From NCBI GenBank assembly GCA_963664235.1, contig OY760933.1, forward strand, positions 76,503 through 140,502: a DNA stretch of 64,000 nt. The letters are read 5' to 3'. Below the pieces are notes generated by a model. It ran no database searches, was not told where the DNA came from, and saw nothing but the letters and a program-made list of their open reading frames with translations. The first letter of the stretch is position 1; each line of letters opens with the position of its first letter. This DNA comes from Acidimicrobiales bacterium (lineage in GTDB: Bacteria > Actinomycetota > Acidimicrobiia > Acidimicrobiales > CATQHL01). Below, one piece after another: positions 626 to 59,794 of the stretch. Made by a program: the position numbers and the translations under genes.

Positions 626-626
626 C

Positions 627-3796: not shown

Positions 3797-3836
3797 ACCG
3801 CTCCTTTGAACGACTCCCTACGATGAGGCGCCGACC

Positions 3837-5090: not shown

Positions 5091-5208
5091 GACGGCCCGA
5101 GCCACCGATCCCCGCCAGCGGCGCGGCCGGTTGGGCCCGAACCACGAACCCCGACCGACCACACCACATTCGACAACCCCCAACTCGAGAAACACGGAGG
5201 ACCCCCAC

Positions 5209-7097: not shown

Positions 7098-7114
7098 CGG
7101 ACCGACCTCCCGGG

Positions 7115-9879: not shown

Positions 9880-9963
9880 GCGAGCACTCTCATCCCGTTG
9901 CCTCGGAGTGCCGACCACCGACGCTGCCCAGAGGCTCGGGCCGGCGCACCTTCGGGGCATCGC

Positions 9964-10389
9964 TCATGCAGCGGCCTCGGAAGCGCTGCGATCGGTCGTG
10001 CACGGGGCGAAGGCCGGCAGCAGGACCCCGTCGGGCCCGGGCACGAAACGGACCTGCACCTCCATGCCGATCCGGACCTCCTCCGCGGGGCAGTCCACGA
10101 TCCACGTCAGGAGCGACCAGCCCTCGGTCACGTCCACGATCGCCAGCACGTAGGGCACCTCGAAGGACGGCTCGGGCGGGCGATGCACGACGGTGAAGCT
10201 GTAGATCGTGCCGCGCCCCTCGCTGGGCTCGTAGCTCCACTGCCCCCAACCGCAGTGCGCGCAGACGACCTGGGGGGTGAAGAAGCTCCGAGCGCAGCGG
10301 GCACAGACGGGCCGCAGCAGTTCGCCCCTGTCGAGCGCCGCCCAGAACTCACCGGTCAGCGCTCGATCGGCGCGGTCCGGCGGGGGCAT
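9964..10389 (-). CDS. DUF35 zinc-ribbon/OB-fold protein (thiolase/aldolase partner type)
   Basis: It has a CARCARSFFTPQVVCAHCG zinc ribbon followed by an OB-like C-terminus. The ATG at 10389 lies 7 nt after the upstream stop. Confidence 0.75.
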   Translation of the reverse strand: MPPPDRADRALTGEFWAALDRGELLRPVCARCARSFFTPQVVCAHCGWGQWSYEPSEGRGTIYSFTVVHRPPEPSFEVPYVLAIVDVTEGWSLLTWIVDCPAEEVRIGMEVQVRFVPGPDGVLLPAFAPCTTDRSASEAAA

Positions 10390-20960: not shown

Positions 20961-21035
20961 CCAGGTGGTAGGTTTCCCTGGTCACGCGCCCGTCCATGAG
21001 GCGGGTGCCCTTCAGAGTTCATTGGGGAGGACACG

Positions 21036-22824: not shown

Positions 22825-22972
22825 ATTGCACCCGCATCGGTCTGAGCGGCGATCCCAAATACTGCCAATCGTTCGGTTGGCAAAATGGCCGGTCACGGAT
22901 TAGCCTGGCCCGGTCCGTCAAACAACCGTCCGGACGGACACCATGTCTGTACGACCACCTGGGAGGACCCTG

Positions 22973-24703
22973 ATGCGAAAGCTTCGGCTCACACTTGTAC
23001 TTCTGGCTGTTTTCGGACTCGTTGCCGCCGCGTGCGCCAGCGACTCCGGCGCGGCCGATGAGGCGCTCGCTGAGGCGCAGGCGGCTTCTGCCGCCGCCGC
23101 GGCAGCGATGAGCGAGGCGCAGAGCGCCGGCGCCGCAGCAGCCGAGATCGGCGCCGCGATCGCTGAAGCGCAAGCCGCTTCGGCCAGCGCCGATGCCGCT
23201 TCAGCAGGCGCGGAAGCCGCAGCAGCCGACGCCGCAGAGGCGTTGGCCGCCGCCGACTTGGCGCAGGCCACAGCCTCGGGGAACGAAGCCGCTGTAGCCG
23301 AGGCCGAGGCCGCGCTCGCCGACGCCCAGGCAGCCGCTGCGGACGCCTCAGCCGCCGCCGCATCTGCCCAGGAAGAGGCCGCCGCCGCGCAGGCCGAAGC
23401 CGCAGCCGCCCAGGAAGAGGCCGCCGCCGCCCAGGCCGAAGCCGAGGCCGCCCAGGCCGAAGCCGCGTCAGCGCAGGCCGAAGCCGCCGCCGCCGAGGAG
23501 TCCGCAGCCGAGGCCGCAGCCGCAGCCGCAGGCCCCATCTGCGGTGGCAACACCACCGGTGACCTGCCCCAGGGTGTGGACAGCGAGAACGGCGTGCTGA
23601 AGATCGGCACCGTTCAGCCCGTCGGCGGCGCCGCCGTCGTGGCCGGAATCGAACTGCTCGGCGGCATCAAGATCGCCGTCGAGGAGATCAACGCCAACGG
23701 CGGCATCGACGGCTGCATGATCGAGCTCGTCGACTACAACTCCCAGTACGAGGTCGAAGAACTCATCAACCAGACCCGCCGCATGATCGACCGCGACGGC
23801 GTGTGGGCCATCCTCTCCCCCGCCGACAGCCGGGCCATCCCGGGCACCTTCGACTTCCTCGCCGAGAGCGGCGTGCCCATGTGGGCGCCCATCTCGCCCC
23901 CGTTCGAGATCGAACGCCAAGAGGTCTACTGGCTGGCCAGCAGCCGCACCGAGCAGGCCCGCATCTGCGTCGACCACTTCCACGACCTGGGCTTCTCCAC
24001 AGTTGCCACGATCGGCGCCACCAACCCGCTCGGCCAGGAGGTCATCGAAGGCGTGGAGATCCAGGCCCCCATCAACGGCATGGAGATCGTCTCGCAGGAG
24101 ACGGTGGAGTCGGCATCGGAGATCGTCGGCCCGGCCGTGCTGAACGTCATCGCCAGCGGTGCCGAGGGCATCGTCGCCGGCGTCGACAACATCCAGAACG
24201 CCCTGATCCTGCAGATCCTGGCCGAGAACAACAGCGATGCGCTGCTCTGCTCCGACCAGGGCGCAGCCGGCTCCGGTGGTCAGAACGCCGTTGGTCCCGC
24301 CGAAGAGGCCGCCGACGGCTTCCTGGGCGCCCTGCAGGTGGCCCTGCCCGACACGGACTCCCCGCTGATGAGCCAGTGGCGTGCGCTGCGCAACGCCTAC
24401 TGCGACTCCATCAGCGACGAGTGCAGGGCAGCCAACTTCAGCGAGCAGACCTACCTGCACTCGATCACCTTCTTCGAGGTGATCGATCGTCTCAACGGTG
24501 ATCTCAGCTGGGACAACTTCCACGCCGTCGCCGAGAACCTCTGGGCCAACCCCATCGAGACAGGCGCCATGCCTCCGATCGGCTGCGGACCGCGGGCCGA
24601 AGGCGGCCACGCCTGCTCCTCTGGAGCCGGACTCTCCGAGTACGACTACGAGACCGAGACCTGGACGCAGATCCGCGAGTTCCAGGCCCCCTACTCCTCA
24701 TAG
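22973..24703 (+). CDS. LivK-type solute-binding lipoprotein with Ala/Glu/Gln stalk, copy 2 (tandem duplicate)
   Basis: Start taken at inner ATG 22973, preceded by GGGAGG. The signal peptide and lipobox are MRKLRLTLVLLAVFGLVAAAC. The gene is collinear with 21036..22763 throughout. Confidence 0.8.
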   Translation: MRKLRLTLVLLAVFGLVAAACASDSGAADEALAEAQAASAAAAAAMSEAQSAGAAAAEIGAAIAEAQAASASADAASAGAEAAAADAAEALAAADLAQATASGNEAAVAEAEAALADAQAAAADASAAAASAQEEAAAAQAEAAAAQEEAAAAQAEAEAAQAEAASAQAEAAAAEESAAEAAAAAAGPICGGNTTGDLPQGVDSENGVLKIGTVQPVGGAAVVAGIELLGGIKIAVEEINANGGIDGCMIELVDYNSQYEVEELINQTRRMIDRDGVWAILSPADSRAIPGTFDFLAESGVPMWAPISPPFEIERQEVYWLASSRTEQARICVDHFHDLGFSTVATIGATNPLGQEVIEGVEIQAPINGMEIVSQETVESASEIVGPAVLNVIASGAEGIVAGVDNIQNALILQILAENNSDALLCSDQGAAGSGGQNAVGPAEEAADGFLGALQVALPDTDSPLMSQWRALRNAYCDSISDECRAANFSEQTYLHSITFFEVIDRLNGDLSWDNFHAVAENLWANPIETGAMPPIGCGPRAEGGHACSSGAGLSEYDYETETWTQIREFQAPYSS

Positions 24704-35291: not shown

Positions 35292-36800
35292 ATGACAAAC
35301 GCCGAAGCACCGGCGCGCGCCGCTGTCGTTTCCCCCTACTGGACATTCTGGGAGGCAAGCGCAGGCGGGTCGACGCTCCGGGAAGACCGCCGGGCGCTGC
35401 TGGCTGATGCCGTCGCGACCCTTCGGGACGCCACCGCATCAGCTGACCCACGGCTTTCCGGCGAGAGTCGGAATCCACAGCCCGACGCAGCCGTCGCGGG
35501 CGCTGGCAGCGTGTCGCTCGAGGTCATCGCCGAGTCCCTCTTGGACTCGCCGGAGTCGGCGGCGACCGTGGCGGGCGGCGTCTCCGGCGAACTCGATGTG
35601 ATCGTGGTCGTCATCACCATGGCGGCGCCCCCCACGCACGGCATGGCGTTCCTGGACCGCTTCGAAGACGTCCCGCTGGTGGTCTGGTCACTGCAGCGGT
35701 CGCGCAACATCCGGGCCGGCTTCGATGCCTCGGACATCACCTCGGCGGGGACCGCCGTGGGCACGCCACAGCTCACCAACATGCTGGCCCGCACCGGACG
35801 GCCCCACGAGATCGTCGTCGGTTCGCTCGACGATGATGCCTGCCACGTGCAGCTGGCCCGCGCCGTCGGTGTGGCGGCGACGGCGAGCGCGCTGCGGACG
35901 GCCCGGATCGCCCGGGTCGGCCAACCCCCGCCGGGCTACGCCTGTGTGGACGCCGACCCCGAGGCGCTGCGGCGCGCCACCGGCATCGACCTCGTGGCCG
36001 TAGATCCCGCCGACCTGCGCCGCCGCTGGAGCGCGGTGGACGGGGCGAGCATCGACCACCTGCAGCGAGAGGCGGAGGCCACCACAGAGATCGCCGTCGC
36101 CTGGGACACCGCCGGGCGGCGCTCCCTGGCCGGCGCAGCAGCGCTGGAAGCCCTGGACGACGACCTGGGCGTCGCGGCGGGAGCCATGAACTGCCACGTT
36201 CCCGAACTCCGCTTCGGCACCGAGGTGGGCGTCACGCCCTGCTACGGCCTGGGGCGGGAGACCTCCCGGGGAATCCCCTGGACATGCGCCGGCGACGTGC
36301 TCACCGCGGTCGCCATGCTCGTCGGCAAGCGACTCGGAGGTGCCGCCCTGTACCACGAGGTGGAGGTCATCGACTTCGACACCGACGAGGTCGCCATCGC
36401 CAACTCGGGTGAGCACGACCTGGCCTGGTGCCCCGCCGGCGAGCGTCCGCGCCTGCAACCCAACCCGTGGTACAGCGACGATCCGTTGACCGGCGCCTGC
36501 ATGTGGTTCGAGCTACCGCCCGGGCCGGCCTCGCTGATCGGCTTCACCCCCCACTCCGACGAGCCCAGCGGCTACCGCTTCATCGTGGCCGAAGGCCACA
36601 TCACCGAGCGCTCACTCCCGCAGAGCCCCACCGTAGGCGGCGTGTTCCGCTTCGCCGGCGACGCAGGGGTGGCCGAGTCCTGGCGTGCCTGGGCTGCCGC
36701 CGGCGTCAACCACCACAGCTCCGCCAGCCCCGGCCACCTCGCCACCGACGTGGCCACCGTGGCCCGCTACCTCGGCGTCGGCTGCGTCCAGGTCTCCTAG
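35292..36800 (+). CDS. L-fucose/L-arabinose-isomerase-like protein (family-level guess)
   Basis: 502-aa ORF. The N-terminus ...VVSPYWTFWE... and the C-terminal ...GVNHHSSASPGHL... resemble the AraA/FucI-like superfamily. The true start is uncertain because a degenerate REP copy lies in frame at 35455-35479. Confidence 0.5.
   Translation: MTNAEAPARAAVVSPYWTFWEASAGGSTLREDRRALLADAVATLRDATASADPRLSGESRNPQPDAAVAGAGSVSLEVIAESLLDSPESAATVAGGVSGELDVIVVVITMAAPPTHGMAFLDRFEDVPLVVWSLQRSRNIRAGFDASDITSAGTAVGTPQLTNMLARTGRPHEIVVGSLDDDACHVQLARAVGVAATASALRTARIARVGQPPPGYACVDADPEALRRATGIDLVAVDPADLRRRWSAVDGASIDHLQREAEATTEIAVAWDTAGRRSLAGAAALEALDDDLGVAAGAMNCHVPELRFGTEVGVTPCYGLGRETSRGIPWTCAGDVLTAVAMLVGKRLGGAALYHEVEVIDFDTDEVAIANSGEHDLAWCPAGERPRLQPNPWYSDDPLTGACMWFELPPGPASLIGFTPHSDEPSGYRFIVAEGHITERSLPQSPTVGGVFRFAGDAGVAESWRAWAAAGVNHHSSASPGHLATDVATVARYLGVGCVQVS
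35455..35479. repeat. Degenerate REP-like copy inside the isomerase-like ORF
   Basis: tttccggcgagagtcggaatccaca matches the REP consensus at about 23 of 29 positions by hand alignment. It is translated in frame as ...LSGESRNPQ.... Confidence 0.45.
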
Positions 36801-36819
36801 CGCCGGTATCTTCCTGCCC

Positions 36820-37143
36820 GTGGATTCATGGCATCACGTCGGCGGCGTGTCGGACTTCGAAGTGGGTTGGCCTGGAGAGGTCCGGATCGGGTCCCAGCAG
36901 ATCGCGGTGCATCACACGCCCGAGGGTTTCTTCGCAACCGGGGCGATCTGCACGCACGAGGACGAGAGCCTCATCGACGGGCTGCTCGAGGGTTGCGAGA
37001 TCGAGTGCCCGAGGCACATGGCGATCTTCGACGTGCGAACCGGTGAGGTGCTGTGCGCGCCCGCAATCGTGCCGCTGCCGACCTATCCCTGCGAGGTCCG
37101 GGGCAGCGAGGTGTGGGTACTTGTTCCCGACGCGGGCGTCTAG
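36820..37143 (+). CDS. Rieske [2Fe-2S] ferredoxin
   Basis: Start set at GTG 36820, 20 nt after the upstream stop. The ~107-aa protein has CTHEDESL...CPRHMAIF (CxH...CxxH). Confidence 0.75.
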   Translation: MDSWHHVGGVSDFEVGWPGEVRIGSQQIAVHHTPEGFFATGAICTHEDESLIDGLLEGCEIECPRHMAIFDVRTGEVLCAPAIVPLPTYPCEVRGSEVWVLVPDAGV

Positions 37144-37262: not shown

Positions 37263-38366
37263 ATGACAACAGCCCAGAGGTCCGAGCGTCGCCGCGACTG
37301 GATCCCTGAAGAGCCGGTCGACTTCGCGCCCGTCTTCGTCTGGCCCCCGCAGCCCAAGGCGCTGGCGAAGTACTTGTTCGGGTGGGGCGGCTTCCTGTGG
37401 CCGTGGCGGATCATCTGGCTCGGCCTGGCCATCGGTTCGTGGTACTGGCTGTCGCCGGACCTCGCTCAGGCCCGCAACCTCGAGGTGGGCTGGATCGCCA
37501 CGATCTTCGTCCGGAACCTGGTGTTCATATGGCTCGTCGCCGGCGGGATCCACTTGGTCCTGTACACGCTGAAGCTGCAGGGAACCGACCTCAAGCACGA
37601 CCCGAGATGGCTCTTCGTGGGCCGCCGCACGTTCCTCTTCAAGTCCCAGGTTCGCGACAACGTGTTCTGGAGCTGCGTGAGCGGCGTGACTCTCTGGACG
37701 GCCTGGGAGGTGCTGTTCTTCTACGGCTACGCGCACGGTTGGGTGCCGTACCTCGGGTGGTCCGACAACCCAGTGCTGTTCGTGCTGCTCTTCGGTGTGG
37801 TTGTTCTCTTCCGCAAGATCCACTTCTACTTCACGCACCGGCTCCTGCACTGGGGGCCGCTGTACCGCAGCGCCCACTACCTGCACCACAAGAACACCAA
37901 CCCGGGGCCGTGGTCGGGCATGGCCATGCACCCCCTCGAGCACCTCATCTACCTGAGCTCGGTGGTCATCCACTTCGTGGTGGCCTCGCACCCCGTCCAC
38001 ATGATGTTCAACATCTTCGAGACCGCCCTGGCGCCCGCGCACGGCCACACCGGGTTCCACGGCAAGACCGTCAAGGGGAAGCTGCCGGTGGGCGACTACT
38101 TCCACTGGCTGCACCACCGCTACTTCGAGGGCAACTACGGCGAGAACGTGATTCCCCTCGACCGCTGGTTCGGCACGTTCCGGGACGGCCCACCCGACGG
38201 CAGCCCCGGCGCACCCCTGCCGACCGAGCGCCACTACGAACTCGCCGGCGAGGATCCGCGCGGACGGGTCGCCGCCCGGGGCGCTCCCCCGCTTGCGCAG
38301 AATCGCCGGCCAGCCCTTCAAGCGCCTGCAATCTCCGGTGGAAATAGGCTGCATTTCACTGTCTGA
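37263..38366 (+). CDS. Membrane fatty-acid hydroxylase / sterol-desaturase superfamily enzyme
   Basis: Start taken at inner ATG 37263. It has several hydrophobic helices and the His boxes HRLLH, HYLHHK and HWLHHRYF. The last ~55 codons are low-complexity with poor third-position GC and may not be the native C-terminus. Confidence 0.75.
   Translation: MTTAQRSERRRDWIPEEPVDFAPVFVWPPQPKALAKYLFGWGGFLWPWRIIWLGLAIGSWYWLSPDLAQARNLEVGWIATIFVRNLVFIWLVAGGIHLVLYTLKLQGTDLKHDPRWLFVGRRTFLFKSQVRDNVFWSCVSGVTLWTAWEVLFFYGYAHGWVPYLGWSDNPVLFVLLFGVVVLFRKIHFYFTHRLLHWGPLYRSAHYLHHKNTNPGPWSGMAMHPLEHLIYLSSVVIHFVVASHPVHMMFNIFETALAPAHGHTGFHGKTVKGKLPVGDYFHWLHHRYFEGNYGENVIPLDRWFGTFRDGPPDGSPGAPLPTERHYELAGEDPRGRVAARGAPPLAQNRRPALQAPAISGGNRLHFTV
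38022..38094. repeat. Direct repeat A (internal piece of the hydroxylase gene), duplicated at 39758..39830
   Basis: By hand alignment there are 5 mismatches in 73 nt against 39758..39830. It encodes ...LAPAHGHTGFHGKTVKGKLP.... Confidence 0.8.
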
Positions 38367-38415
38367 TATACCTGTAATATGCCGGTCAAGTGCTGGGGCA
38401 CGCTAGACTGCGGGC

Positions 38416-39702
38416 ATGGAGTCGGCCGGCAACAGCGGTCCGCTCACACCCCATGGGTATCGGCAGCGGACCGCCGATGCGCTCATGACCTGGGCGTTGA
38501 GCAGTTCGCCCATTGTCGCGGTCGAGGGCGCACGGGGTGTGGGCAAGTCCTGGACCAGCCTTCGGCATGCTTGCAGCGAGGTGCGTCTCGACCGGGACCG
38601 CAGAGCTGCCGAAGCGGCGGCGTTGTGGCCCCGCAGAGTGCTCGAAGGCGCTCGACCGAGGCTGGTGGATGAGTGGCAGCTCGCCCCGGGTCTGTGGAAC
38701 GAGGCTCGGCACGTCGCGGACGCCGAGACGGGTCGAGGGTTGTTCATCTTCACGGGATCGGCGCATCCGCCCGACGATCACACTCGACATTCCGGCGCCG
38801 GCCGCGTGATGCGGGTGAGGATGCGACCGATGTCGCTCGCAGAGTCTGGAGAGTCGACCGGAGAGGCGTCGCTGGCGTCCTTACTCGACGGCGCCGACTG
38901 CTCCGTGGGCACACCTCAGGCATCGGACACCGACGTTGTGGAGGCGCTCTGCAGAGGCGGCTGGCCGAGGCATCTCACTATGGGCGTGGCGCAGGCACAG
39001 GCCCTGTGCCGCGCCTACCTCTCAGAAATCGCTCGCGTGGACATCGGAAGGTTGGATGGCGCAAGACACCGCCCCGAACGTGTCATGAGACTCTTGGAGT
39101 CGCTGAGCCGCAACACCGCAACCGCCGCCGCAGCATCCACTCTCGCCGGCGACATCGCCGGCGACGCTGCGCCGTCCCGCGACACCGTCTCGGACTACAT
39201 CGAATCCCTCAAACGGGTGTACGTGGTGGAGGACCTGCCTGCCTGGTCGGTCCACCTGAGGTCTCGTGCGCGGCTGCGACGTTCGCCCAAGCGCCATCTG
39301 GTGGACCCGTCGCTCGCCGTAGCGGTCCTGGGTGCCGGTCCCGAGCGACTCTGGCGAGATCCGGGATTCCTGGGCCAGGCGTTCGAGTCGCTGGTGGTGC
39401 GTGACCTACGGGTCTACGCGGACGCCAACGAGGCATCCGTCCACCAATACCGCGACAGCAACGGCCACGAACTCGATGCTGTGGTTCAACGCTTCGACGG
39501 CCGATGGCTGGCCGTAGAGGTCAAGCTCGGGCCGGGTGATCGCGTCGACGAAGCGGCCCGGTCGTTGAACGCCGCCTGCGAGCAAATCGACTTCGACCGG
39601 GTCGGCCCGCCCGCGAAGCGGCTGGTGATCACCCCGTCGGGGTACGGTTACGAACGGCCCGACGGCGTCACAGTCGTGCCCGTCACGTCGCTCGGCCCGT
39701 GA
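38416..39702 (+). CDS. AAA ATPase with DUF4143-type C-terminal nuclease-like domain (COG1373-like), paralog 1
   Basis: It has Walker A GARGVGKS, Walker B LVDEWQ and the C-terminal ...HELDAVV...WLAVEVK... (D...E.K). It is a paralog of 58234..59505 and has the same terminal ...GYGYERPDGVTVVPVTSLGP. Confidence 0.75.
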   Translation: MESAGNSGPLTPHGYRQRTADALMTWALSSSPIVAVEGARGVGKSWTSLRHACSEVRLDRDRRAAEAAALWPRRVLEGARPRLVDEWQLAPGLWNEARHVADAETGRGLFIFTGSAHPPDDHTRHSGAGRVMRVRMRPMSLAESGESTGEASLASLLDGADCSVGTPQASDTDVVEALCRGGWPRHLTMGVAQAQALCRAYLSEIARVDIGRLDGARHRPERVMRLLESLSRNTATAAAASTLAGDIAGDAAPSRDTVSDYIESLKRVYVVEDLPAWSVHLRSRARLRRSPKRHLVDPSLAVAVLGAGPERLWRDPGFLGQAFESLVVRDLRVYADANEASVHQYRDSNGHELDAVVQRFDGRWLAVEVKLGPGDRVDEAARSLNAACEQIDFDRVGPPAKRLVITPSGYGYERPDGVTVVPVTSLGP

Positions 39703-39706
39703 CAGA

Positions 39707-39757
39707 TCGGTTACGGAGCCCCGGCGGGCCTCAGATGCGGTGGACGCGCTCGGCGTT
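39707..39757 (-). pseudogene. Orphan copy of the 3' end (last 9 codons plus downstream tail) of the lactonase-like gene
   Basis: It aligns with 44813..44865 with 4 mismatches and a 2-nt indel by hand. It reads NAERVHRI* on the minus strand, against NAERVYRI* in the real gene. Confidence 0.75.
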
Positions 39758-39830
39758 ACCGCGCTCGCACCCGCGCACGGCCACACCGGCTTCCACGGCA
39801 AGACCGTCAAGGGGAAGCTGCCGGCGGGCG
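39758..39830 (+). pseudogene. Orphan internal fragment of the fatty-acid-hydroxylase gene
   Basis: It is a copy of 38022..38094 and begins at the base immediately after the lactonase fragment. Similarity is lost after ...gctgccggcgggcg. Confidence 0.75.
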
Positions 39831-39882
39831 GTTCGGTCTGCGGTGACTCCCGCCACGCCGAGGACAGGCAGTGCTCTGGGGG

Positions 39883-42814
39883 TCAACTCGGGGGGTCTTC
39901 GTCACCGAAGTTGAGCCAGCATTCGGAGGTGCCGTCGGGGCGCAGGCCGCAGGTGTGCCATCCGTCGGCGGTGAGGGCGGTGAGGGGGCCCGGTGGGACG
40001 CTGTATCGAATTCTGCTCACACTCCGGCCGCCACCGGGGCCGCTGCCCCAGCATTCGGGGGTGCCGTCGGGGCGCAGGCCGCAGGTGTGGAACCAGCCGG
40101 CGGCGATGTCGGTGAACGGCCCCGGCGGGGCGTCGGTCTGGCGGTAGAAGTTGTCGCCCCAGCACAGCACGTCGCCGCTGTCGCGCAGCGCGCAGGTGTG
40201 TTCGAAGCCGGCAGCGATGTCGGTGAGCGTGGTGGCCTCCAGCCACGCCGGCGGGCCGGCGGACTCGCCGGCCCATTTGGATCCCCAGCATTGGTAGCCG
40301 CCGCCGCGGCGGGTCGCGCAGCCGTGTTCACGGAACGCGTTCCAAACGCCGGTCTCCTCTCCCGAGCCGATGTCGAGGGCGGTGAACGGCCCCGCCAGGC
40401 GCAGTGTCACGGCGCTCTCCTCGTCGGCGGCGAACAGGTCCCAGCAGATCACCGATCCCGTGGCGCGGATGCCGCAAGCTTCGCGGCGACCCACGGCCAC
40501 GGAGGTGATAGCGCCGTCGGGCGCCGCGTACGGCTCCCCGTCGCGGATCTGCCAGCAGGACACGACGCCGCCGCGGCGGATCCCGCAGGCGGCCCACCAG
40601 CCGACGCTGACCGCCGCGAACACCCCGGCCGGTGGCGGGTGGTCGACGAGCCCCCCGTCGATCCCCGTGCGCCAACCCCAGCACGCCACGCTGCCATCAT
40701 CGCGGAGACCGCATGCGTGGTAGTGGCCGGCGTCGAGGGCCGCGAGCCCGCCGCGTGCCGTGTACGACTGCAGCCAATCCGCCATGGGGACTTCGCGGAA
40801 CCGCCGCCAATTGCGCCACGGCCGCTTGTTCCTATCGGAGTAGTCAAGGAACCCTGCCCAGAAGTGAAGCTGATCGACGGTCCTGTAGCCGCCGGGCGCG
40901 CCGGCGCGCTCGTCGGGCAGGCCCGCTCCCGGTGGCCACCCGTCGGCCCAGCACTCCACGGTGCCCGCCGGGCGGATCCCGCAGTAGTGATCCCCTCCGG
41001 AGCTGACGACCGTGAACGGCCCCTCCGGCAGCGCGTCGGAGCCCGATCTCGTGCAGTCGACCGTGCCGCCCGCGGGCTGGCAGGAGTCCATAGCCCACCC
41101 GCGCACCACAGGCAGCACCTCGCCGCTCCCCGCCGACGGGCCGCTGCGGTCGCGCCGGCATACCAATTCCCACGTGGCACGATTCCCGCACTCGTAGTCC
41201 CCGAGGCGAATCGTCCGGAATAAGACCCGACTTCGCTCGGCGTCGTGGACGGGCGTCCGCGCCGACAGCGGGTTCCGACCGGCCATCTCCCTGCTCAGGC
41301 CCCAGCACACCGCCTCGCCGGCGGGGCGCAAACCGCACGCGAAGCGATAGCCGGCGCGGATCGCCGTGAACCGCCCCGGCGGCGGGTGGGTCGCCCACCA
41401 GCTACTCGACCCCCAACACGCCACCTCGCCGGCGGGACGCAGACCGCACGTCAAGCTCGCGCCGGCGCTGAGCGCGGTGAACCGCCCCGGCGGCGGCTCG
41501 GTCGCGCCGTTCTCGTCGTAGCCCCAGCACGCCGCCTCGCCGGCGGGGCGCAAACCGCACCCGTGATACTGCCCCATGCTGATCGACGCGAACTCGCCCT
41601 CCGGCGGCGACCAACCCAGCGGCACCGCCCCCCAACACACCACCTCGCCGGCGGGACGCAGACCGCACGTGTGACTGGAGCCGGAGTCCAGCGTCACGAA
41701 CAGCCCCGCCGGCGGGCGATACCCCACCTCCGCGTCGTTCCAACACGCCAACGACCCGTCGACGCGAACCCCACAGATCGAACCGGGGAAGACCAGAGGC
41801 GATCCATGCTCGAGCAGCGCCGGCACGGCAGCGATCGCCACGAACGGCCCGCTCGGCGCCGGCGCCATCCCCCACCCCGGGCACGGCGCGGAAAAATAAC
41901 CCGTGCAATCCCACGCCAGCTTCTCCCTGCCCCAGCACGCCACCTCCCCGCCGGTTCGCACCCCGCACGTGAACTCCATCCCCGTCGCGATCGCCGAGAA
42001 CGAACCCTCCGGAGGCGACGCCTGCCCCGCGTCGTTGGCACCCCAACACTCCACCGACCCCCCAGCCCGGAGCCCACAACTGTGCGAAAAGGAGACGCTG
42101 ACCGCCGTGAACACGCCCCCCCGCAGCACCGGCGCCGAATCGCGCGACCAACACACCAGCATGCCCCCGACACGGATCCCGCACGCGTAGGGCCCCCATC
42201 CCACCGACACCGCCTCGAACACGCCTCCCGGCGGCGCGAATTCCTCAACGCCCGGACCCCAACACGCCAACGATCCCCCGGCACGGATCCCGCACGCGTG
42301 CTCGTCGCCCACGCTCACCGCCGAGAACGACCCCGCCGGCGCCGACCACTCCCCCCCTTCCACCGCCCCCCAACACACGAGCGCGCCACCGACACGAACC
42401 CCGCACGCGACCCGCGGGCCCACACTCACAGACACGAACCGCCCGTCCGGCGGCATGTCACGACGATCCTCGCTCCATCCCCCCCCAACACGCCACCTCA
42501 CCACCCGCCCGCAACGCACACCCCACCCGGCCGCCCAGACTCACCGACACAAAACCCTGCCCCGCACCGTCACTCGCCGGCAGCGCCTCCGGCGCCGAGC
42601 CACTGCCCGCCGCGACAGAACCCCCACCGTCCGCCGCCGGCGCGCCGGGAGCCTCCACCGCCGGCGCGCTGGGAGCCTCCACCGCGTCGCCGCGGACCGA
42701 CGAAACCGCCACATCGCCCTCCGAAGCAACAGAACACGATGCGGCCGCGAGGGCGACGACCAGCAGCGCGATGCCGGTCAGGCGCACCCCTCCCCCCCGG
42801 CGGCGACTCATCAC
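39883..42814 (-). pseudogene. Secreted RCC1-repeat (beta-propeller) protein with a possible lipobox, interrupted by a +1 frameshift in a G8 tract
   Basis: ORF 42458..42814 carries the signal peptide MMSRRRGGGVRLTGIALLVVALAAASC and the first blade. ORF 39883..42519 carries many blades with the pattern F..V..G..H.CG.R..G...CWG. The two join at the homopolymer 42479-42486, and G7 would restore ...EVACWGGWSEDRRDMPPDGRF.... Confidence 0.8.
42479..42486 (-). repeat. Homopolymer G8 (C8 on the plus strand) at the RCC1 frameshift
   Basis: Counted directly: ...catCCCCCCCCaaca... on the plus strand. Confidence 0.9.
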
Positions 42815-42996
42815 GAAACCCCGCCCGGCACCCGAGTCATCGACGCCGGGCGTGCACCGGCCTGCCGCGGCGAATCGTCGAATCCGGTCGAGGAGGGAGA
42901 GGACATGCCTGCGGAAACCCCAGCCGCCGGCTCGTTCAGCGGGTCGTCGTCGCTGACGTTCAGCCAGCAGTCGTCTTCCCCGCTCGTCGACAGCGG

Positions 42997-43140
42997 TATG
43001 AGAACTTCGATCTCCGATACAGACAGATATTCATATATATTCGATCTGTTGTCCAATATTATACAGCTACTTGATCGTATTGAAGAATATCATTATTGTT
43101 CAGGTGCTATATTGAGATCCTGATACTTTCTAGATTTCAC
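42997..43140. other. AT-rich patch in a GC-rich context, with an imperfect palindrome at 43023-43049
   Basis: The patch reads ...gtatgagaacttcgatctccgatacagacagatattcatatatattcgatctgttgtccaatattatacagctacttgatcgtattgaagaatatcattattg.... The arms acagat and atctgt flank an AT core. It lies upstream of the RCC1 gene start and next to the IS3 scar. Confidence 0.7.
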
Positions 43141-43171
43141 GCAGGTTGTGGTGTTCGTCGGATTCACGCCG

Positions 43172-43325
43172 TCAGCTTGCTTGATTTCGGGCACCGGTGG
43201 TGGTGTGACGGGTCTCGTATTCCACGGGCGTGTGCATGTCGAGTGGAGAGTGTCGTCGTTGCCGGTCAGTGACCTGCCGCCCCAAGAACTCGGGGCAGGC
43301 CAGAGCCTCCAATACCCGGGGTCGT
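43172..43325 (-). mobile_element. IS3-family transposase (rve integrase domain) C-terminal remnant
   Basis: The minus-strand translation is *RPRVLEALACPEFLGRQVTDRQRRHSPLDMHTPVEYETRHTTTGARNQAS*. The RRHS.L...P.E(Y/F)E tail is typical of IS3 OrfB C-termini. It is bounded upstream by an in-frame stop, so only about 50 codons survive. Confidence 0.6.
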
Positions 43326-43414
43326 TAACCGTGACCTGGGCACTCACAGGAACCCATACCGCGCTAGGGATCCAACCACTGGAGGGGGACGGTTCGCCGT
43401 GAGGGTCGCCGGAC

Positions 43415-44686
43415 CTACCGAGGCCTGCGCGGGACGCTCCTGATCGGCTCCGAGACGAGGGTGTCTCCCCCCGGGCTCGCGAGCTGCCGTTCCAGCGCCG
43501 TGAACTCCTCGATGACTTCGGGGGCCTCGAACGCACGGTTTCGCCGCCCGAGGGTCACCTGCGCAAGAATGCCGGCTCCCACGAGCCGCTCGATCGCCTG
43601 GTTGGTCGCCTGGAACGACCGTCCGATCAACTCCGAGGCCGTCGTGGCGGTCAGCAAGGGCGCGCCCGGCAATGCGCGAACGAGCAGATCAGCTGCCGAG
43701 TCGCGGCGCACTGACCCGAGCCGCTCTCGCCAAGAGTCCTGGAGCGTACGCACCTGCTCCTCGAAGCGCCCGGCGTCGGTGGCGGCCCGCCGGCATGCGC
43801 TCGCGAACAGCGCGATCCAACCGTTGAGACCGGCGCGGGCTTGCTCGGATTCGGGCGCGCCTTCATAGCGGGTCCCCATGAGTCCACCCACGTAGTCGCG
43901 AGGCCATGTGGCGAGGATCAGCGAGACCGGGGGAAGGACGCGCGGCGCGAGTCCGCGCCGTCGCAACACCAGGTGAATCAGCGCACGCCCCGTGCGCCCG
44001 TTCCCGTCGACGAACGGATGGATCGTCTCGAACTGTGCGTGGGCAATGGCCGCCTGCGCGACCGCTGGCAGGGAGTCGTCATTGCAGAACGAGGCGAGGT
44101 CCGCCACCAGCGCATCGACCAGGTCGTGCGGCGGTGGCACGAAGGCCGCCGAACACGGGTTGTAGTCGCTGCCGCCGATCCAGTTCTGGACGGCACGGGT
44201 GCGGCCGCCGTGGCCGGCGAGACGCGTACCGGCGAGCAGGCGGCGATGCGCCTCCTTCACGATCTCCACGGTGATCGCCCCCCTCGGCGGCACCGCCTCG
44301 GTGGCCCAGAGCATCGCCTCGATGTTCCCGAGCACCTCCACGGCGGTGATGTCGCTCGGGTCCTCGCCGAGTTGGCGGGCGGCCTGGGCACGGAGGAGCC
44401 GGCGGCCCCCCACCTCCAAACCTTCGATCCGGGAAGAGGCCACCGCTTCGGCGCGAAGCAGCAGCCGGGCCAGCGCCTCGGTGCCGGCGAGCGCGCCCGC
44501 CGTGGCGTCGAGCCGGGCGAGTGCCGCTTCGGCATCGGCGACATCGGCCGCAACATCGCCGTCGAGCAAGAAGCGCCGACCGACGAGGGGGTCGGGGATA
44601 TAGACCTCGTAGTCGCAAGGACGGCGATCGCGGCGTGTGAGGCCACGATCGTCGCCCGCCCAGTTCCGCGTTTCCAACCGAGCCAT
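43415..44686 (-). CDS. Fic/DOC family protein (Fido domain) with an N-terminal inhibitory-helix motif
   Basis: It has the Fic motif HPFVDGNGRTGRA, and an N-terminal SSRIEG that matches the (S/T)xxxE(G/N) inhibitory motif. Start set at ATG 44686, preceded by GGAAGG. The track start at 44704 is a TTG. Confidence 0.8.
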   Translation of the reverse strand: MARLETRNWAGDDRGLTRRDRRPCDYEVYIPDPLVGRRFLLDGDVAADVADAEAALARLDATAGALAGTEALARLLLRAEAVASSRIEGLEVGGRRLLRAQAARQLGEDPSDITAVEVLGNIEAMLWATEAVPPRGAITVEIVKEAHRRLLAGTRLAGHGGRTRAVQNWIGGSDYNPCSAAFVPPPHDLVDALVADLASFCNDDSLPAVAQAAIAHAQFETIHPFVDGNGRTGRALIHLVLRRRGLAPRVLPPVSLILATWPRDYVGGLMGTRYEGAPESEQARAGLNGWIALFASACRRAATDAGRFEEQVRTLQDSWRERLGSVRRDSAADLLVRALPGAPLLTATTASELIGRSFQATNQAIERLVGAGILAQVTLGRRNRAFEAPEVIEEFTALERQLASPGGDTLVSEPIRSVPRRPR

Positions 44687-44697
44687 CTCGACCTTCC

Positions 44698-44726
44698 TAT
44701 TCAAGGATACAATACAACCTTGAATA
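44698..44726. promoter_or_regulatory. Perfect 9-bp inverted repeat just upstream of the Fic start (candidate operator)
   Basis: TATTCAAGG-atacaatacaa-CCTTGAATA lies 11 nt upstream of ATG 44686 and abuts the RBS. Confidence 0.4.
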
Positions 44727-44812
44727 CAGGTCCCGGCAATTCACGGCGGAGGTGAACCCCTGCCGACCCGCCGGCGGGAGTCCGTAGCAACGAAGGAGCT
44801 AGACGGCCCCGC

Positions 44813-44865
44813 TCGGTTAACGAGCCCCGGCGGGCCGCTCAGATGCGGTAGACGCGCTCCGCGTT
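44813..44865. repeat. Direct repeat B (lactonase 3' end plus downstream tail), duplicated at 39707..39757
   Basis: See 39707..39757. Confidence 0.8.
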
Positions 44866-45726
44866 CTTGGAGAACAGGGCCTCCTGCTCGTCGCGGCTGA
44901 AGTCCGAGATGATCTCGCGGTAGGCCGCCACGACGTCGGCGTAGCTGGAGTACATCCTGTCCACCGGCCAGTTGGTGCCGAAGAACGAGCGCTCGACGCC
45001 GAAGGCCTCGATGCAGCCCAGCACCCAGCGACCGATGGAGTCGGTGGTCCAGTTGGTGCCGGCCATCTGATGGCCCATCCCCAGCCCGGAGATCTTGATG
45101 ACGCAGTTCTCGGCCTCGGCGATGGCGTCCATGCCGGCCCGCCAGTTGGCGAAGTACTCGTCGTCGATGGCCTGCGGGAAGCCGGCGTGGTCGAGGATCA
45201 TCACGATGTTGGGATACTTCTTGGCCAGGGCGCCGGCCTTGGCCATGTTCTCCCAGGTGCAGTCCAGGTCATAGACCAGGTTGTACTTCTCCAGCAGGGC
45301 GTAGCCGCGGTGGAAGTTGGGGTCCACCAGGTAGTCGCCCTCGGCGAAGTCTCGAAGGCCCCGGAACAGCGGGAACTCGCAGTGGCGGGCGATGGTCTCC
45401 TCGACGTCGGGGCTCTGCATGCGGGCGTCGCCGGTGATTCCATGCGGCCAACCCGTGGCCTCGGCCATCTCCGACAGCCAGCGGGTCTCCTCCACCGGGT
45501 CGGCCGTGCCGATGGCGGCCTGCACGTGCACCGCCTTGGTCACCCCGCAGCCCTCGATGTCGGCGAGGTACTCGTCGGGGGTGTAGCGCCTCATGTCCTT
45601 GAGCGGCCGGATATCGCCGAGCTGCGGGTGGACGAAATCGTCCTCCAGCCACACCCACTCCAGCGGCGGGTGCGGGCGGTCCCAGTAGTGGATGTGAGAG
45701 TCCACGAAGGCCAAGTCGCTGCTCAT
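44839..45726 (-). CDS. Amidohydrolase_2 family sugar lactonase-like enzyme (L-fucono/rhamnono-lactonase type)
   Basis: Start taken at inner ATG 45726, preceded by AGGAGG. Motifs seen are VDSHIHYW, ...ILDHAG... and ...FGTNWPV.... It is the last gene of the sugar ABC operon. Confidence 0.7.
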   Translation of the reverse strand: MSSDLAFVDSHIHYWDRPHPPLEWVWLEDDFVHPQLGDIRPLKDMRRYTPDEYLADIEGCGVTKAVHVQAAIGTADPVEETRWLSEMAEATGWPHGITGDARMQSPDVEETIARHCEFPLFRGLRDFAEGDYLVDPNFHRGYALLEKYNLVYDLDCTWENMAKAGALAKKYPNIVMILDHAGFPQAIDDEYFANWRAGMDAIAEAENCVIKISGLGMGHQMAGTNWTTDSIGRWVLGCIEAFGVERSFFGTNWPVDRMYSSYADVVAAYREIISDFSRDEQEALFSKNAERVYRI

Positions 45727-48511: not shown

Positions 48512-49813
48512 CTACGAGCAGCCAGTGACCTCGTAGTAGTCGTCGATGTTCTCCGAAGTGATCTGCTGGTGAGGCGTGAACAACTGGCCGGCGATGCTGT
48601 TGCCCTCGATGGCGTTGATGATCGCCGGGAGCAGGATCGTGCCGTACCGCTCGGGGAAGTAGGCCACCGAGGCGATGTAGTTCGGGTTGTTCTTGACATC
48701 GCACCAGATGCTCGGATCCGTGCCCTGGCCCGAGAAGTAGAGGTCGCCGTCGCGTCCCAGCGTCCGGGCTGCGGCGATGGCACCGATGATGCCGTCCTCG
48801 TTGATGGCAACAACCGCGATGCGGTCACCGGGCAGCGCCGGCAGCAGGTCGGTGAGCTGCTCGAGCGCCGGGTCGGTCCGATCGGCACCGTCCATGATCT
48901 GCTCGTTGATGATCGGGCAGTGCTCGGTGAAGCCCTGACGATAGCCACCCATGCGGTCGCGGTTGGCCGCGCCGGCGGCCGTGGACTCCAGCGAGATGTA
49001 CGCCGTGTAGTCACAGTCGAAGTTCTCCTTGAAGTACGCACCGAGGGCGCTGCCGCCGAGGTAGCCGGCGTAGCCGTTGTTGGCGCCCATGAAGGAGAGC
49101 TGGCACGGGGGCTGGATGATGTCGATGGCGATCACGGGGATGCCCTCGGGCAGGGCCGCGCAGATCTCCGGCGATGACTCCTGGAACACCTGGAAGTTCA
49201 GCAGGCCCTCAACGCCCTGGACCTCGAAGGTCTGAGCGCATTCCAGCGCCTTGCCCGCATCGATCTCGGAGTCGCAGAAGAGAAGCTCGACGCCCTGGCG
49301 CTCCGCCTCTTCCTTGATGCCGTCGGAGACCAACTTCACGAACGGAACCTGATCGCCGAGGGAGATGTAACCGACCTTGTAGGCGGGGCGCTCGGCTGCC
49401 GCGGCGGCGGCCTGCGCGGCTGCAGCCTCGTTCTCGGCCCTGTCCGCCTCTGTGCGGGCAGACTCAGCCTCGGCACGAGCAGCCTCAGCCTCGGCGCGGG
49501 CGGCATCAGCAGCGGCCTGCGCTTCGGCGTCACCACTGGCAGCGGCCTCAGCCTCGGCACGGGCGGCATCCGCTTCAGCGGTAGCGGCGGCAGCCTCAGC
49601 GCGGGCAGCTTCCGCCTCAGCGGTAGCGGCCGCAGCCTCCTGGCGGGCGGACTCGGCCTCGGCCTGCGCAGCCGCAGCATCCGCCTCGGCGGCCGCAATG
49701 GCCTGCTGGGCGGCGGCATCGGCGGCACCGTCGTCGCCGTCGTCGCCGGCACACGCCGACGCCACAAGGGCCAGCACGAAGGCAAGCGCTAGCAATCGTC
49801 GAATTGCTTTCAT
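48512..49813 (-). CDS. Sugar-binding (Peripla_BP_1/4, RbsB-like) lipoprotein with a ~125-aa Ala/Glu/Arg stalk
   Basis: RBS GGGAGAGGGAGA, then the signal peptide and lipobox MKAIRRLLALAFVLALVASAC, then the stalk ...AEAEAARAEAAAATAEADAARAEAEAA.... The SBP body begins ...YKVGYISLGDQVPFVKLVSDGIKEEA.... Confidence 0.8.
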   Translation of the reverse strand: MKAIRRLLALAFVLALVASACAGDDGDDGAADAAAQQAIAAAEADAAAAQAEAESARQEAAAATAEAEAARAEAAAATAEADAARAEAEAAASGDAEAQAAADAARAEAEAARAEAESARTEADRAENEAAAAQAAAAAAERPAYKVGYISLGDQVPFVKLVSDGIKEEAERQGVELLFCDSEIDAGKALECAQTFEVQGVEGLLNFQVFQESSPEICAALPEGIPVIAIDIIQPPCQLSFMGANNGYAGYLGGSALGAYFKENFDCDYTAYISLESTAAGAANRDRMGGYRQGFTEHCPIINEQIMDGADRTDPALEQLTDLLPALPGDRIAVVAINEDGIIGAIAAARTLGRDGDLYFSGQGTDPSIWCDVKNNPNYIASVAYFPERYGTILLPAIINAIEGNSIAGQLFTPHQQITSENIDDYYEVTGCS

Positions 49814-58233: not shown

Positions 58234-59505
58234 CTAGGGACCGAGTGCTGTGAGGGGAACGACGGTGGTGCCGTCGGGACGTTCGTAGCCGTAGCCGGTG
58301 GCCGTGATGATCAGCAGCTTGGACGGCTCGGACGTGCGCGAGGTGTCCACCTTGTGGCGCAGGCGCAGCAGCGACCGGGCGGCTCTCTCGATGCCCTCGT
58401 CCGCGCCGAGCTTCACTTCCGCGGCGACCCAGCGCCCGTCGCGTGCTTCGACAATGGCGTCGACTTCCAGCGCGTCGCTGTCGCGGTAGTGGTAGACCGA
58501 GGCTCCGCCGGCCCCGCCGTAGATGCGCAGGTCCCGCACGACCAGCGACTCGAACAGGAATCCCAGCGCCTCCAGGTCGCCCAGCAGCAGCTGGGGACCG
58601 GCGGCCAGGGCCGCGACGGCCAGTGAGGGGTCCACGAAGTGTCTCTTGGCCGAGCCTTGCAACGTGGCCCTGGACCGCAGGTGCGAGCGCCACGCAGGAG
58701 CGTCCTCCACGATGAACAGTCGCTCCAGGGACCGCAGATACTCGGTGGCCGTGGTGCGGTTGAGGGGCCGGTCACCGGCGGCCTCGGCAGCGAGCCTGGA
58801 GAAGGATGCCGTCGTGGCCACGTTGCGTGCGATGGAGGCGATCAACCTGGCCACCCCGGCCGGGTCGCGCGCCACCCCGTCCACCGCGCTGACGTCGGTC
58901 CGGCAGAGTTCCGAGATGTAGCCGTCCAGGAAGAGTTGCGCGTCGGGCACGGACCGGCCAAGCAGGCGAGGCCAGCCGCCCCGGCAGAGCGCGTCGAGCA
59001 TGTCCCTGAAGTCGGCCTCCGGGCGGCGGGCCGCCACGGGCGCCCCCTCCAGCAGCGCCGCCAGCGACACGTCACCGGTGGACTCCCCTGTCTCGAGCAG
59101 CGACATGGGTCTCATCCGCACCCGGGCGATGCGCCCGGCACCGGAGTGCCGCGTGATGTCGTCCGGCGGGACCGCAGAGCCTGTGAGGATGAACCGCCCG
59201 GTGCGGTGCCCCTCGTCAGCGGCGTGGCGGATCTGGTTCCAGACCTCCGGTGCCAACTGCCACTCGTCGAGGAGACGAGGCTCTCCGCCCTCCAGCACCA
59301 GGCCGGGCACCAACGACACCGACCTGCGGGCGTTGAGGTCTCGATCGAACAGCACCTCACTGCGGGCGAAGCTGCGCCCCGTCCACGTCTTGCCGCACCC
59401 CTTGGGGCCCTCGATGACGACCGCGGGCATCGCGGCGAGCGCCCGTGTCACCGCGCCGTCTGTCACCCGCAGCTTGTAGCCAGCGGGCGTGAGCGTCTCC
59501 GGCAT
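58234..59505 (-). CDS. AAA ATPase with DUF4143-type C-terminal domain (COG1373-like), paralog 2
   Basis: RBS GGGAGG. It has Walker A GPKGCGKT, Walker B LLDEWQ and C-terminal ...LEVDAIV...WVAAEVK.... It aligns over its full length with 38416..39702. Confidence 0.75.
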   Translation of the reverse strand: MPETLTPAGYKLRVTDGAVTRALAAMPAVVIEGPKGCGKTWTGRSFARSEVLFDRDLNARRSVSLVPGLVLEGGEPRLLDEWQLAPEVWNQIRHAADEGHRTGRFILTGSAVPPDDITRHSGAGRIARVRMRPMSLLETGESTGDVSLAALLEGAPVAARRPEADFRDMLDALCRGGWPRLLGRSVPDAQLFLDGYISELCRTDVSAVDGVARDPAGVARLIASIARNVATTASFSRLAAEAAGDRPLNRTTATEYLRSLERLFIVEDAPAWRSHLRSRATLQGSAKRHFVDPSLAVAALAAGPQLLLGDLEALGFLFESLVVRDLRIYGGAGGASVYHYRDSDALEVDAIVEARDGRWVAAEVKLGADEGIERAARSLLRLRHKVDTSRTSEPSKLLIITATGYGYERPDGTTVVPLTALGP

Positions 59506-59794
59506 GTGGCCTCCCGGTCCGCCGTCGGACCTCCGCCGATAAATCCTACAGTATCCGGAGAGAGCAACCTACTACTTATGGAGTTGCCGACCGACAACTA
59601 TCGAAGATACTGGCCTACAGATGCGGCGGCCGCCCCAAGTCCCAATCAGCCCGGCCGGAGAGCGTCCGAACAGATCGCCGTCGCCCGCCGGACGCTCCTA
59701 CCCGGCTACCAGGGCCGAGGAACCTCGATCCGCGTCGATTCCTGAGCGTGCCCTGGCCACGACCGCGTGCGCCTGCTGCTCGACCAGAACCGGC

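Follow-up and report, generated by a model that had tools for sequence, protein, structure and literature searches.

A spacer-free fusion of two gene fragments in an Acidimicrobiales genome, probably a scar of two haplotypes stacked at an integrase-free hotspot

Contig OY760933.1 of an Acidimicrobiales bacterium (GenBank assembly GCA_963664235.1) carries, within the 64,000 nucleotides analysed here (positions 76,503 to 140,502; hereafter the window, numbered from its first letter), an exact fusion of two gene fragments, both lying between a gene of the FA_hydroxylase family (Hyd) and an intact gene of the Amidohydro_2, or "lactonase", family (amid). At this joint, 39757/39758, a copy of the end of amid (B', 39707-39757; original B, 44813-44865) meets a copy of an internal piece of Hyd (A', 39758-39830; original A, 38022-38094). 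We consider it probable that the joint is a recombination scar, formed when two alternative haplotypes of the same locus were stacked by an illegitimate end-join and a homologous crossover, and since eroded by decay. Formally such a structure would be a tandem duplication of the Hyd-amid interval with copies that were different from the outset, and the interiors of the copies would be dissimilar because they belonged to different haplotypes at the time of joining.

Sensitive self-comparison of the whole window (self-BLASTN) aligns A with A' at 93.2% identity over 73 nt (five mismatches, E 4.5e-24), a pair also recovered by an independent repeat search, and B' with B at 88.7% over 53 columns (four mismatches and a 2-nt gap, E 4.8e-11), which bears out the two copies, with the same mismatches and 2-nt indel, that the original prediction had aligned by hand. 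The B' and A' homologies touch, as had been claimed, without a spacer; they also share no base, leaving 0 nt of microhomology. The joint reads GCGTT/ACCGC, B runs on as CTTGG and the bases before A are TCGAG. The order A..B'/A'..B, likewise as first described, is a permuted novel joint in which the end of an interval is fused to its beginning, and tandem-duplication-like rearrangement or Campbell-type integration of a circle, the class originally proposed, is still the best explanation of such a B-then-A joint. Nor did self-BLASTN find any similarity between 38095-39706 and 39831-44745, in agreement with the dissimilar interiors noted earlier and contrary to a simple in-place duplication with equal content. 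The whole stack reads Hyd-ATPase-(amid end B'/hydroxylase piece A')-RCC1/IS3 scar-Fic-amid, and compared with an empty site the window carries approximately 38263-44745 as inserted DNA. One piece missed in the earlier description can be added, a displaced hydroxylase 3' end (44746-44803) that runs straight into the intergenic tail and amid, as Hyd does at empty sites.

The locus was compared with relatives found by a scan of one genome per species, which gave 79 loci with a related hydroxylase, the 14 closest at 84-96% protein identity; protein look-ups added 11 loci, and approximately 24 related loci (designated by L-codes) were compared in detail by named window segments. The 14 closest loci lie in metagenome-assembled genomes (MAGs) of Acidimicrobiales/Acidimicrobiia or of unclassified bacteria, and isolate codes together with 'Candidatus Poriferisodalis' protein names suggest a sponge origin for many of the relatives. 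Both the left flank (isomerase-like, Rieske and Hyd genes) and the right flank (amid and an ABC transporter) are conserved, and the slot of 40-80 bp between the convergent Hyd and amid differs in content from strain to strain. In L004, L005 and L014 it is empty and Hyd and amid are directly adjacent. The slot holds only the window-type ATPase in L007 and L084-L089 (L089 has in addition a decayed partial Hyd'-ATPase' copy upstream), only a second ATPase type in L009 and L013, and only Fic in L006, L090/L091 and the right end of L001. ATPase is followed by remnants of a mostly deleted Fic module in L092, a beta-lactamase-like gene stands between ATPase and Fic in L008, and RCC1-like genes non-orthologous to that of the window, with or without Fic, are found in L010 and L011. 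Where it is occupied, the slot was found over the approximately 24 loci to contain ATPases of two types, Fic, RCC1-repeat genes of three different kinds, a beta-lactamase-like gene or a sugar ABC operon, and with its conserved flanks, varied content and empty sites it belongs to the class of genomic hotspots of accessory genes between conserved core genes.

The distribution of the two main modules alters the original picture of a native Hyd-ATPase-lactonase backbone around one foreign 5 kb cassette, which is wrong because the ATPase and Fic segments each occur alone in relatives; both are equally accessory. The ATPase module is found also in L002, L007, L008, L082, L089 and L092, and L004, L005 and L014, where the slot is empty, lack it. 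The Fic module recurs in L001, L002, L003, L006, L008, L010, L082 and L090, with its left edge at 43350-43395; in the window it begins at 43350-43384, the same left edge as in L001, L002, L003, L006, L008, L010 and L082. The arrangements that a joining of heterologous haplotypes by a circle would need as parents, ATPase only and Fic only, therefore exist separately.

A stack with the modules in the opposite order is present in the closest relatives, L082 and L083, two independent assemblies from different samples that are 93-98% identical to the window. These read Hyd/Fic-...-hyd 3' remnant-tail-amid(+70)/hyd(-10)-ATPase-tail-intact amid; the joint differs from that of the window, yet again an amid stump is fused to a hydroxylase-derived end. 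Further scars are seen in L012, where Hyd-tail-amid(+325) is joined to the second-type ATPase (from ~100 nt into its module) followed by tail and amid; in L003, where an amid stump of ~106 nt precedes a permease-like gene and then Fic; and in L089, where the second copy upstream of the intact Hyd-ATPase has a large internal hydroxylase deletion and a partial ATPase. L002, whose ATPase is 98% identical, matches B' at 100% over its first 21 nt, beyond which it passes directly into the Fic module, and so reads as a putative deletion derivative of a window-like stack.

L002 belongs to the same MAG (APA_bin_18) as L001, and holds a hydroxylase copy with ATPase and Fic in addition to that of L001. 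The L001 stretch (1-10328) starts in the Fic 5' end and ends in the Fic 3' flank, and its interior comprises an 8.1 kb sugar ABC transporter/glycosyl hydrolase/GntR block, on either side of which the 3' end of the isomerase-like gene is directly repeated (144 and 203 nt), and then the hydroxylase copy; L001 also fuses the Fic-linked tail to an isomerase-like gene fragment. Taken together, L001 and L002 imply either a more extensive tandem stack that contains the hydroxylase gene twice or else a form that is circular or tandem; of the latter, the position of both L001 ends within the Fic gene is an ambiguous hint. Fragments of the isomerase-like 3' end are also present within the hotspots of other relatives (L008 7155-7191 and 8140-8418, L009 12599-12670, L011 11060-11145, L014 6929-7014); these fragments, including those of L001, end at or near the stop codon of the gene and differ in their left ends. 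To judge from these sequences, modules may also travel between the isomerase-hydroxylase slot and the hydroxylase-amid slot, bringing pieces of the flanks with them.

Measured from the amid stop, the amid joints fall at +27 in the window, +70 in L082/L083, ~+106 in L003 and +325 in L012, and because these equivalent joints lie at different positions in relatives there is no fixed attachment site. This bears directly on the idea that the structure is a degenerate site-specific island at the amid 3' end, with B' and B as its attL and attR and an integrase that later disappeared. Direct repeats that take in a gene 3' end do flank a 5 kb segment and the gene itself is intact, as at islands in tRNA genes or gene 3' ends, but the four joints have no common core, B' borders at its inner edge on a piece of hydroxylase and not on element DNA, and no integrase was found in 35-48 kb of the window, in L001 or in the stretches of L003, L008, L010 and L011. 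We therefore regard a site-specific island as exceedingly unlikely and largely refuted. More generally, no recombinase or integrase domain was found in the main open reading frames (ORFs) of window 35-48 kb, for which the earlier remark that none is visible holds, and no recombinase gene in the equivalent stretches of L001 or the intervening stretches of L003, L008, L010 and L011. With no recombinase and no fixed attachment site, the structure is a scar rather than an active or working mobile element, and the earlier thought that the mosaic might still be mobile finds no support in the missing recombinase and the scattered joints.

Other classes of element were considered and rejected. An IS3 composite transposon or active insertion sequence (IS) does not agree with an orfB remnant of only ~40 codons, and no inverted repeats bracket the segment among the 25 longest of the 51 pairs in 36-47 kb. 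For an integron cassette array there is neither an integrase nor an attC-like common border, as judged with no formal attC model run. As for a motif shared by module borders, the tail hairpin GAGCCCCGGCGGGC is exact only in B and B', with near-matches at chance level, and a short resemblance of the ATPase module to the Fic module at their left edges, noticed by eye, was not consistent across loci.

The right end of the ATPase module, TGACAGATCG, is the same in the window, L002, L007 and L089, with close variants in L008, L090 and L092. In L082/L083 the ATPase, 98% identical, is followed by CAGATCGGTTACGGAGCCCC and then TCAGATGCGG, continuing into intact amid, and the first 23 bases past the ATPase stop are identical to the ATPase-B' stretch of the window; on this evidence the ATPase-CAGATCGGTTACGGAGCCCC tail with intact amid is the predicted precursor of B'. 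B' is also derivable from the longer tail of the ATPase-only locus L089 by an 87-nt deletion. To judge from the ATPase tails in L082/L083 and L089, B' is thus the stump of an amid allele that formerly stood downstream of the ATPase module. At one site B' has G and B has C (GCTCGGCG versus GCTCCGCG); the G state is found in L007, L008, L089 and L014 and the C state in L003, L005, L006, L010 and L082, such that B' has the allele of ATPase-type relatives and B that of most Fic-bearing relatives (not L008). B' has in addition a private non-synonymous change (TAC to CAC), as expected of a dead fragment, and B shares 98% identity with the L082 copy that is linked to Fic.

The allele states of A' point in the same direction. 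Four of its five differences from A are synonymous third positions, and all five A' states are present in working hydroxylase orthologues of other lineages, with no private changes. Because the differences are mostly synonymous, shared with orthologues and in no case private, A' looks like a recently severed piece of a functional allele from another strain, and not like the product of in-place decay of A. A' is all that is left of a second, partial copy of the hydroxylase. In place of the ~170 nt of hydroxylase expected after it there is a 52-nt spacer, followed by the RCC1 gene and then by an AT-rich patch and what remains of the IS3 element.

These observations weigh on two rival explanations. 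The first is an in-place tandem duplication, by unequal sister-chromosome exchange within one genome, of a Hyd-amid interval that already carried several modules, followed by complementary deletions or module replacements. A tandem duplication leaves, in the textbook case, just such a novel joint as A..B'/A'..B, the decayed Hyd'-ATPase' beside an intact copy in L089 indicates that duplication and deletional decay do occur here, and the MAG of L001 and L002 seems to carry the hydroxylase twice. The near-identity expected of such copies is not seen, however (A/A' 93%, B/B' 89%), and as the copies share no module, two complementary deletions at exact module boundaries would be needed. In addition, A' has no private changes and differs from A by the allele states of other lineages, mostly at synonymous sites, and B and B' carry module-linked states, whereas the joining of haplotypes explains the single haplotypes and the reciprocal stack of relatives in one step. 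An in-place origin is therefore unlikely. The second is a break-repair patchwork, in which a double-strand break beside the ATPase module was mended, through end-joining or template switching, with the 73-nt hydroxylase filler A' and no interval was duplicated. The shortness of A', its illegitimate joints on both sides and the lack of microhomology, as in Ku-type end-joining, would suit this explanation, and the nearby IS3 remnant could have caused breaks. A filler taken from the resident gene should match A, though, and A' differs at 5 of 73 sites, with the states of other lineages; the patchwork also leaves unexplained both B', for which an amid end must have followed the ATPase module, and the reciprocal stack of L082/L083, and we find it quite improbable.

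Returning to the stacking of two haplotypes, the starting arrangements would have been Hyd-ATPase-tail-amid and Hyd-(...)-Fic-hyd 3' remnant-tail-amid. A blunt illegitimate end-join would have fused the amid 3' end of the ATPase haplotype, at +27 (B'), to the hydroxylase interior of the other haplotype (A'); for the insertion to be complete, a single homologous crossover would have been needed in a flank common to both. On the likeliest route, end-joining would have closed a sibling-strain fragment into a circle, which a single Campbell-type crossover would then have integrated. Either the 1.74 kb circle A..B' (38022-39757) might have entered a Fic-type chromosome via ~240 nt of hydroxylase homology, or the Fic-bearing part of about 5 kb an ATPase-type chromosome via the 53-nt tail or further into amid; the two versions fit equally well, so the donor might have been either partner. 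The linear equivalent, homology-facilitated illegitimate recombination (HFIR) anchored in amid, would give the same product. A circle is favoured over a linear molecule because flank sequence is duplicated rather than deleted, and because in an E. coli conjugation study that screened for HFIR, 56 of 60 recombinants were single crossovers of circular molecules, which duplicated 109-950 bp of the homologous locus (PMC3240628). After the joining, the redundant partial hydroxylase copy would have been trimmed to 73 nt, and the RCC1 gene may have arrived with an IS3 element that later decayed.

The flanks themselves contain signals of recombination. By sliding identity, the 3' 450-550 nt of amid are closest to L005/L006 and the remainder is closest to L012, with a breakpoint at ~45340-45410 by maximum chi-square (0/2000 permutations reached the observed value, p<0.0005). 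Compared with L082, DNA downstream of amid is 97-100% identical and mismatches are concentrated within amid. This fits amid as the place where crossovers land, and the breakpoint is a candidate HFIR anchor in a gene that is mosaic in general. The joint itself does not resemble that of HFIR, having 0 nt of microhomology and a 53-nt piece of the anchor region duplicated, not deleted, and duplications of such kind have been assigned to circle integration (PMC3240628).

Several points weigh against the stacking of two haplotypes. As the region is mosaic throughout, the amid breakpoint may come from an unrelated exchange, and no sharp identity step is seen at 38022-38262 between the window and L002, L089 or L082, a step that would have marked the left edge of the 1.74 kb circle. 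The allele evidence comprises few sites, five in A' and one informative single-nucleotide polymorphism in B'. A' is not continued by the remaining hydroxylase, so that at least one further event is needed, and a crossover within B would have had no more than 53 nt of homology at 89% to work with, a short stretch for RecA. Finally, a degenerate pattern scan of the Joint Genome Institute (JGI) metagenome collection found the B'/A' joint on no second contig, and the RCC1 cluster at 100% likewise has a single member.

The lack of a second contig would also be expected of an assembly artefact, in which a long-read metagenome assembly wrongly strung together the haplotypes of two co-existing strains, or made use of a chimeric read. 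The source contig, of 3.49 Mb, is indeed metagenome-derived, several hotspot haplotypes co-occur in sponge samples, and the homopolymer frameshift in the nearby RCC1 gene hints at consensus error. False joins of haplotypes, however, use long shared overlaps, and here 53- and 73-nt pieces of unrelated sequence meet bluntly, with a second odd joint 73 nt further on. The ATPase-B' adjacency is present also in the independent assembly L002, and analogous scars occur in independent assemblies, L082 and L083 being alike. An artefact is therefore very unlikely.

We also considered whether the DUF4143/AAA_14 ATPase unit itself drives the rearrangements, as a mobile cassette that needs no integrase and gives rise to the defence-type hotspots of sponge symbionts; it would leave as circles with variable flanking DNA and re-enter by homology. 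The edges of the unit (~100 nt of upstream region, the ORF and ~8 nt) are constant within a few bases across contexts and orientations, and all clear stacking scars (window, L082/L083, L012 and L089) include an ATPase of the DUF4143 family. We consider such a role decidedly unlikely.

Two further occurrences of this ATPase family may be recorded. In L090 (8707-11287) and L091 an ATPase 90% identical to that of the window is inverted and lies on the other side of the hydroxylase, its conserved part being the ~100 nt upstream region, the ORF and a few bases past the stop. The window itself has a second DUF4143/AAA_14 ATPase gene at 58234-59568 on the minus strand, with 65% nucleotide identity to the gene at 38416-39702; the flanks of the two are unrelated and have no shared ends.

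Table 1. Genes and segments of the window around the joint (positions of the 64,000-nucleotide window).
Feature	Position	Strand	Basis or remark
Isomerase-like gene, conserved left flank	35292..36800	+	weak Pfam match, L-arabinose isomerase C-terminal domain
Rieske [2Fe-2S] gene, between isomerase-like gene and Hyd	36685..37143	+	Pfam; orthologue called in L082/L083
Hyd, fatty-acid hydroxylase family, conserved flank	37263..38366	+	Pfam, translation, alignment of hydroxylase ends
A, in-gene original of the 73-nt repeat	38022..38094	+	in frame, inside FA_hydroxylase domain
ATPase module: ~150 nt upstream region, ATPase gene, few bases (TGACAGATCG)	38263..39709	+	accessory hotspot occupant; DUF4143/AAA_14 gene 38416-39702 (Pfam)
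B', amid-end leftover: intergenic tail, stop, last 8 codons	39707..39757	+	self-BLASTN
A', internal hydroxylase fragment, 73 nt, illegitimate joints at both ends	39758..39830	+	self-BLASTN, allele comparison
52-nt spacer, A' to RCC1 stop codon	39831..39882		no match in window or any fetched locus
RCC1-repeat protein gene, secreted or lipoprotein-type	39883..42814	-	Pfam, translation
AT-rich patch upstream of RCC1 gene	42850..43170		GC ~0.5 (0.49-0.51 at about 42850-43300)
IS3-family orfB 3'-end scar (probable), ~40 codons	43180..43300	-	tblastn, best E 0.03
Fic module: Fic/DOC gene with Fic_N (43415-44704) and flanks	43350..44745	-	Pfam, NCBIfam
Displaced hydroxylase 3' end, 17-nt deletion, ancestral stop GGAGCTAG	44746..44803	+	sequence alignment
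B: intergenic tail with GC-rich hairpin, stop, last 8 amid codons	44813..44865	+	self-BLASTN, hairpin fold
amid, Amidohydro_2, conserved right flank, intact	44839..45717	-	Pfam; L-fuconolactonase-like 111 bits, below NCBIfam family cut-off

Pfam agrees with the RCC1, Fic, DUF4143 ATPase and hydroxylase genes first called from the sequence (Table 1), and the AT-rich patch then noted is real. The true start of the Rieske gene is probably near 36820. At the natural stop position of Hyd (38260-38262) the window has GGA, L002 and L008 have TGA and L012 has TAA, and the Hyd ORF in the window overruns by 35 codons into the ATPase module, to 38366.

The RCC1 gene had been described as frameshifted. 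Its ORF covers 39883-42519 and the signal-peptide N-terminus lies in a different frame, due to one extra G in a G8 (C8/G8) run at 42479-42486 where the L080 orthologue (71% identical) has G7; the extra base is thus present, but it is possible, comparing these sequences, that the frameshift is a homopolymer sequencing or consensus error and the gene intact. Among the relatives examined the gene is found only in this genome (its 100% cluster has one member). L080, the nearest orthologue, lies in an unrelated context with homology confined to window 39893-42816, and was rejected as a guide to the donor arrangement. RCC1-repeat proteins are very numerous in these genomes, with 1771 database matches at E<=1e-20 and with another encoded on the source contig itself, and the non-orthologous RCC1-repeat genes that occupy the hotspot elsewhere lie at 10982-13068 in L010 and 11337-12455 in L011. 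The earlier claim of an IS3 transposase scar stands in part: a ~40-residue minus-strand peptide aligns with the C-terminal end of IS3 OrfB copies carried on plasmids of Rhodococcus and other actinobacteria, but the match, by tblastn against plasmids, is weak and the peptide has no Pfam or NCBIfam profile match.

Elsewhere in the window, two tandem paralogues for periplasmic solute-binding proteins (Peripla_BP_6; 21025-22761 and 22961-24698) are 90.6% identical over 1.74 kb, with weaker related repeats at 49391-49739, and the pair looks like an ordinary in-place tandem gene duplication.

The locus provides a clean natural record, among closely related uncultivated sponge symbionts, of the integrase-free pile-up of accessory genes, in which the empty site, single modules, both stacking orders and the joints can all be read, although it reveals no new kind of element or mechanism. 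It supports the view that end-joining and homologous recombination between sibling strains can add, not only replace, and helps to understand how symbiont populations turn over their defence-type genes and their eukaryote-like ones (RCC1-repeat). Long-read data can moreover be searched for the specific joints described here.

Integration hotspots lie between core genes, and islands build up in tandem at tRNA genes or gene 3' ends. The window resembles these in its conserved flanks, variable content, empty sites and repeated gene-end fragments, but has no integrase or fixed att core, and its joint positions vary by strain. It can also be compared with the Campbell-type integration of circles recovered in E. 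coli conjugation experiments (PMC3240628), which likewise leaves a direct duplication of part of the homologous locus flanking the insert and, at the point of closure of the fragment, a permuted joint, with no dedicated recombinase; the window event differs in being read from sequence, in its shorter visible duplicates (53 and 73 nt), in an insert that is a natural version of the same locus and not a plasmid, and in the decay of the product. HFIR (de Vries & Wackernagel 2002; Prudhomme et al. 2002; Meier & Wackernagel 2003, as cited in PMC5361080) shares with the window one homologous anchor, here the candidate amid crossover, and one illegitimate joint that together bring in non-homologous DNA. 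Classical HFIR usually deletes recipient DNA by the anchor and uses 3-10 nt of microhomology, whereas in the window the ends meet bluntly and part of the anchor gene is present twice.

A further parallel is offered by the orphan immunity genes and orphan 3' ends found at type VI secretion system (T6SS) effector-immunity clusters of V. cholerae and at Rhs and contact-dependent inhibition (CDI) loci (PMC5361080). As in the window, these displacement arrays add modules without an integrase at a conserved gene border and keep older modules and gene-end fragments as scars, in an order that varies by strain. In the arrays it is the 3' end of one toxin gene that varies, and retention of immunity genes is plausibly selected, whereas the slot of the window lies between convergent metabolic genes, its cargo is unrelated (DUF4143 ATPase, Fic, RCC1-repeat) and both module orders are seen. 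The processes are thus already known, and the locus is a new natural example of them in an uncultivated lineage, unusually well documented.

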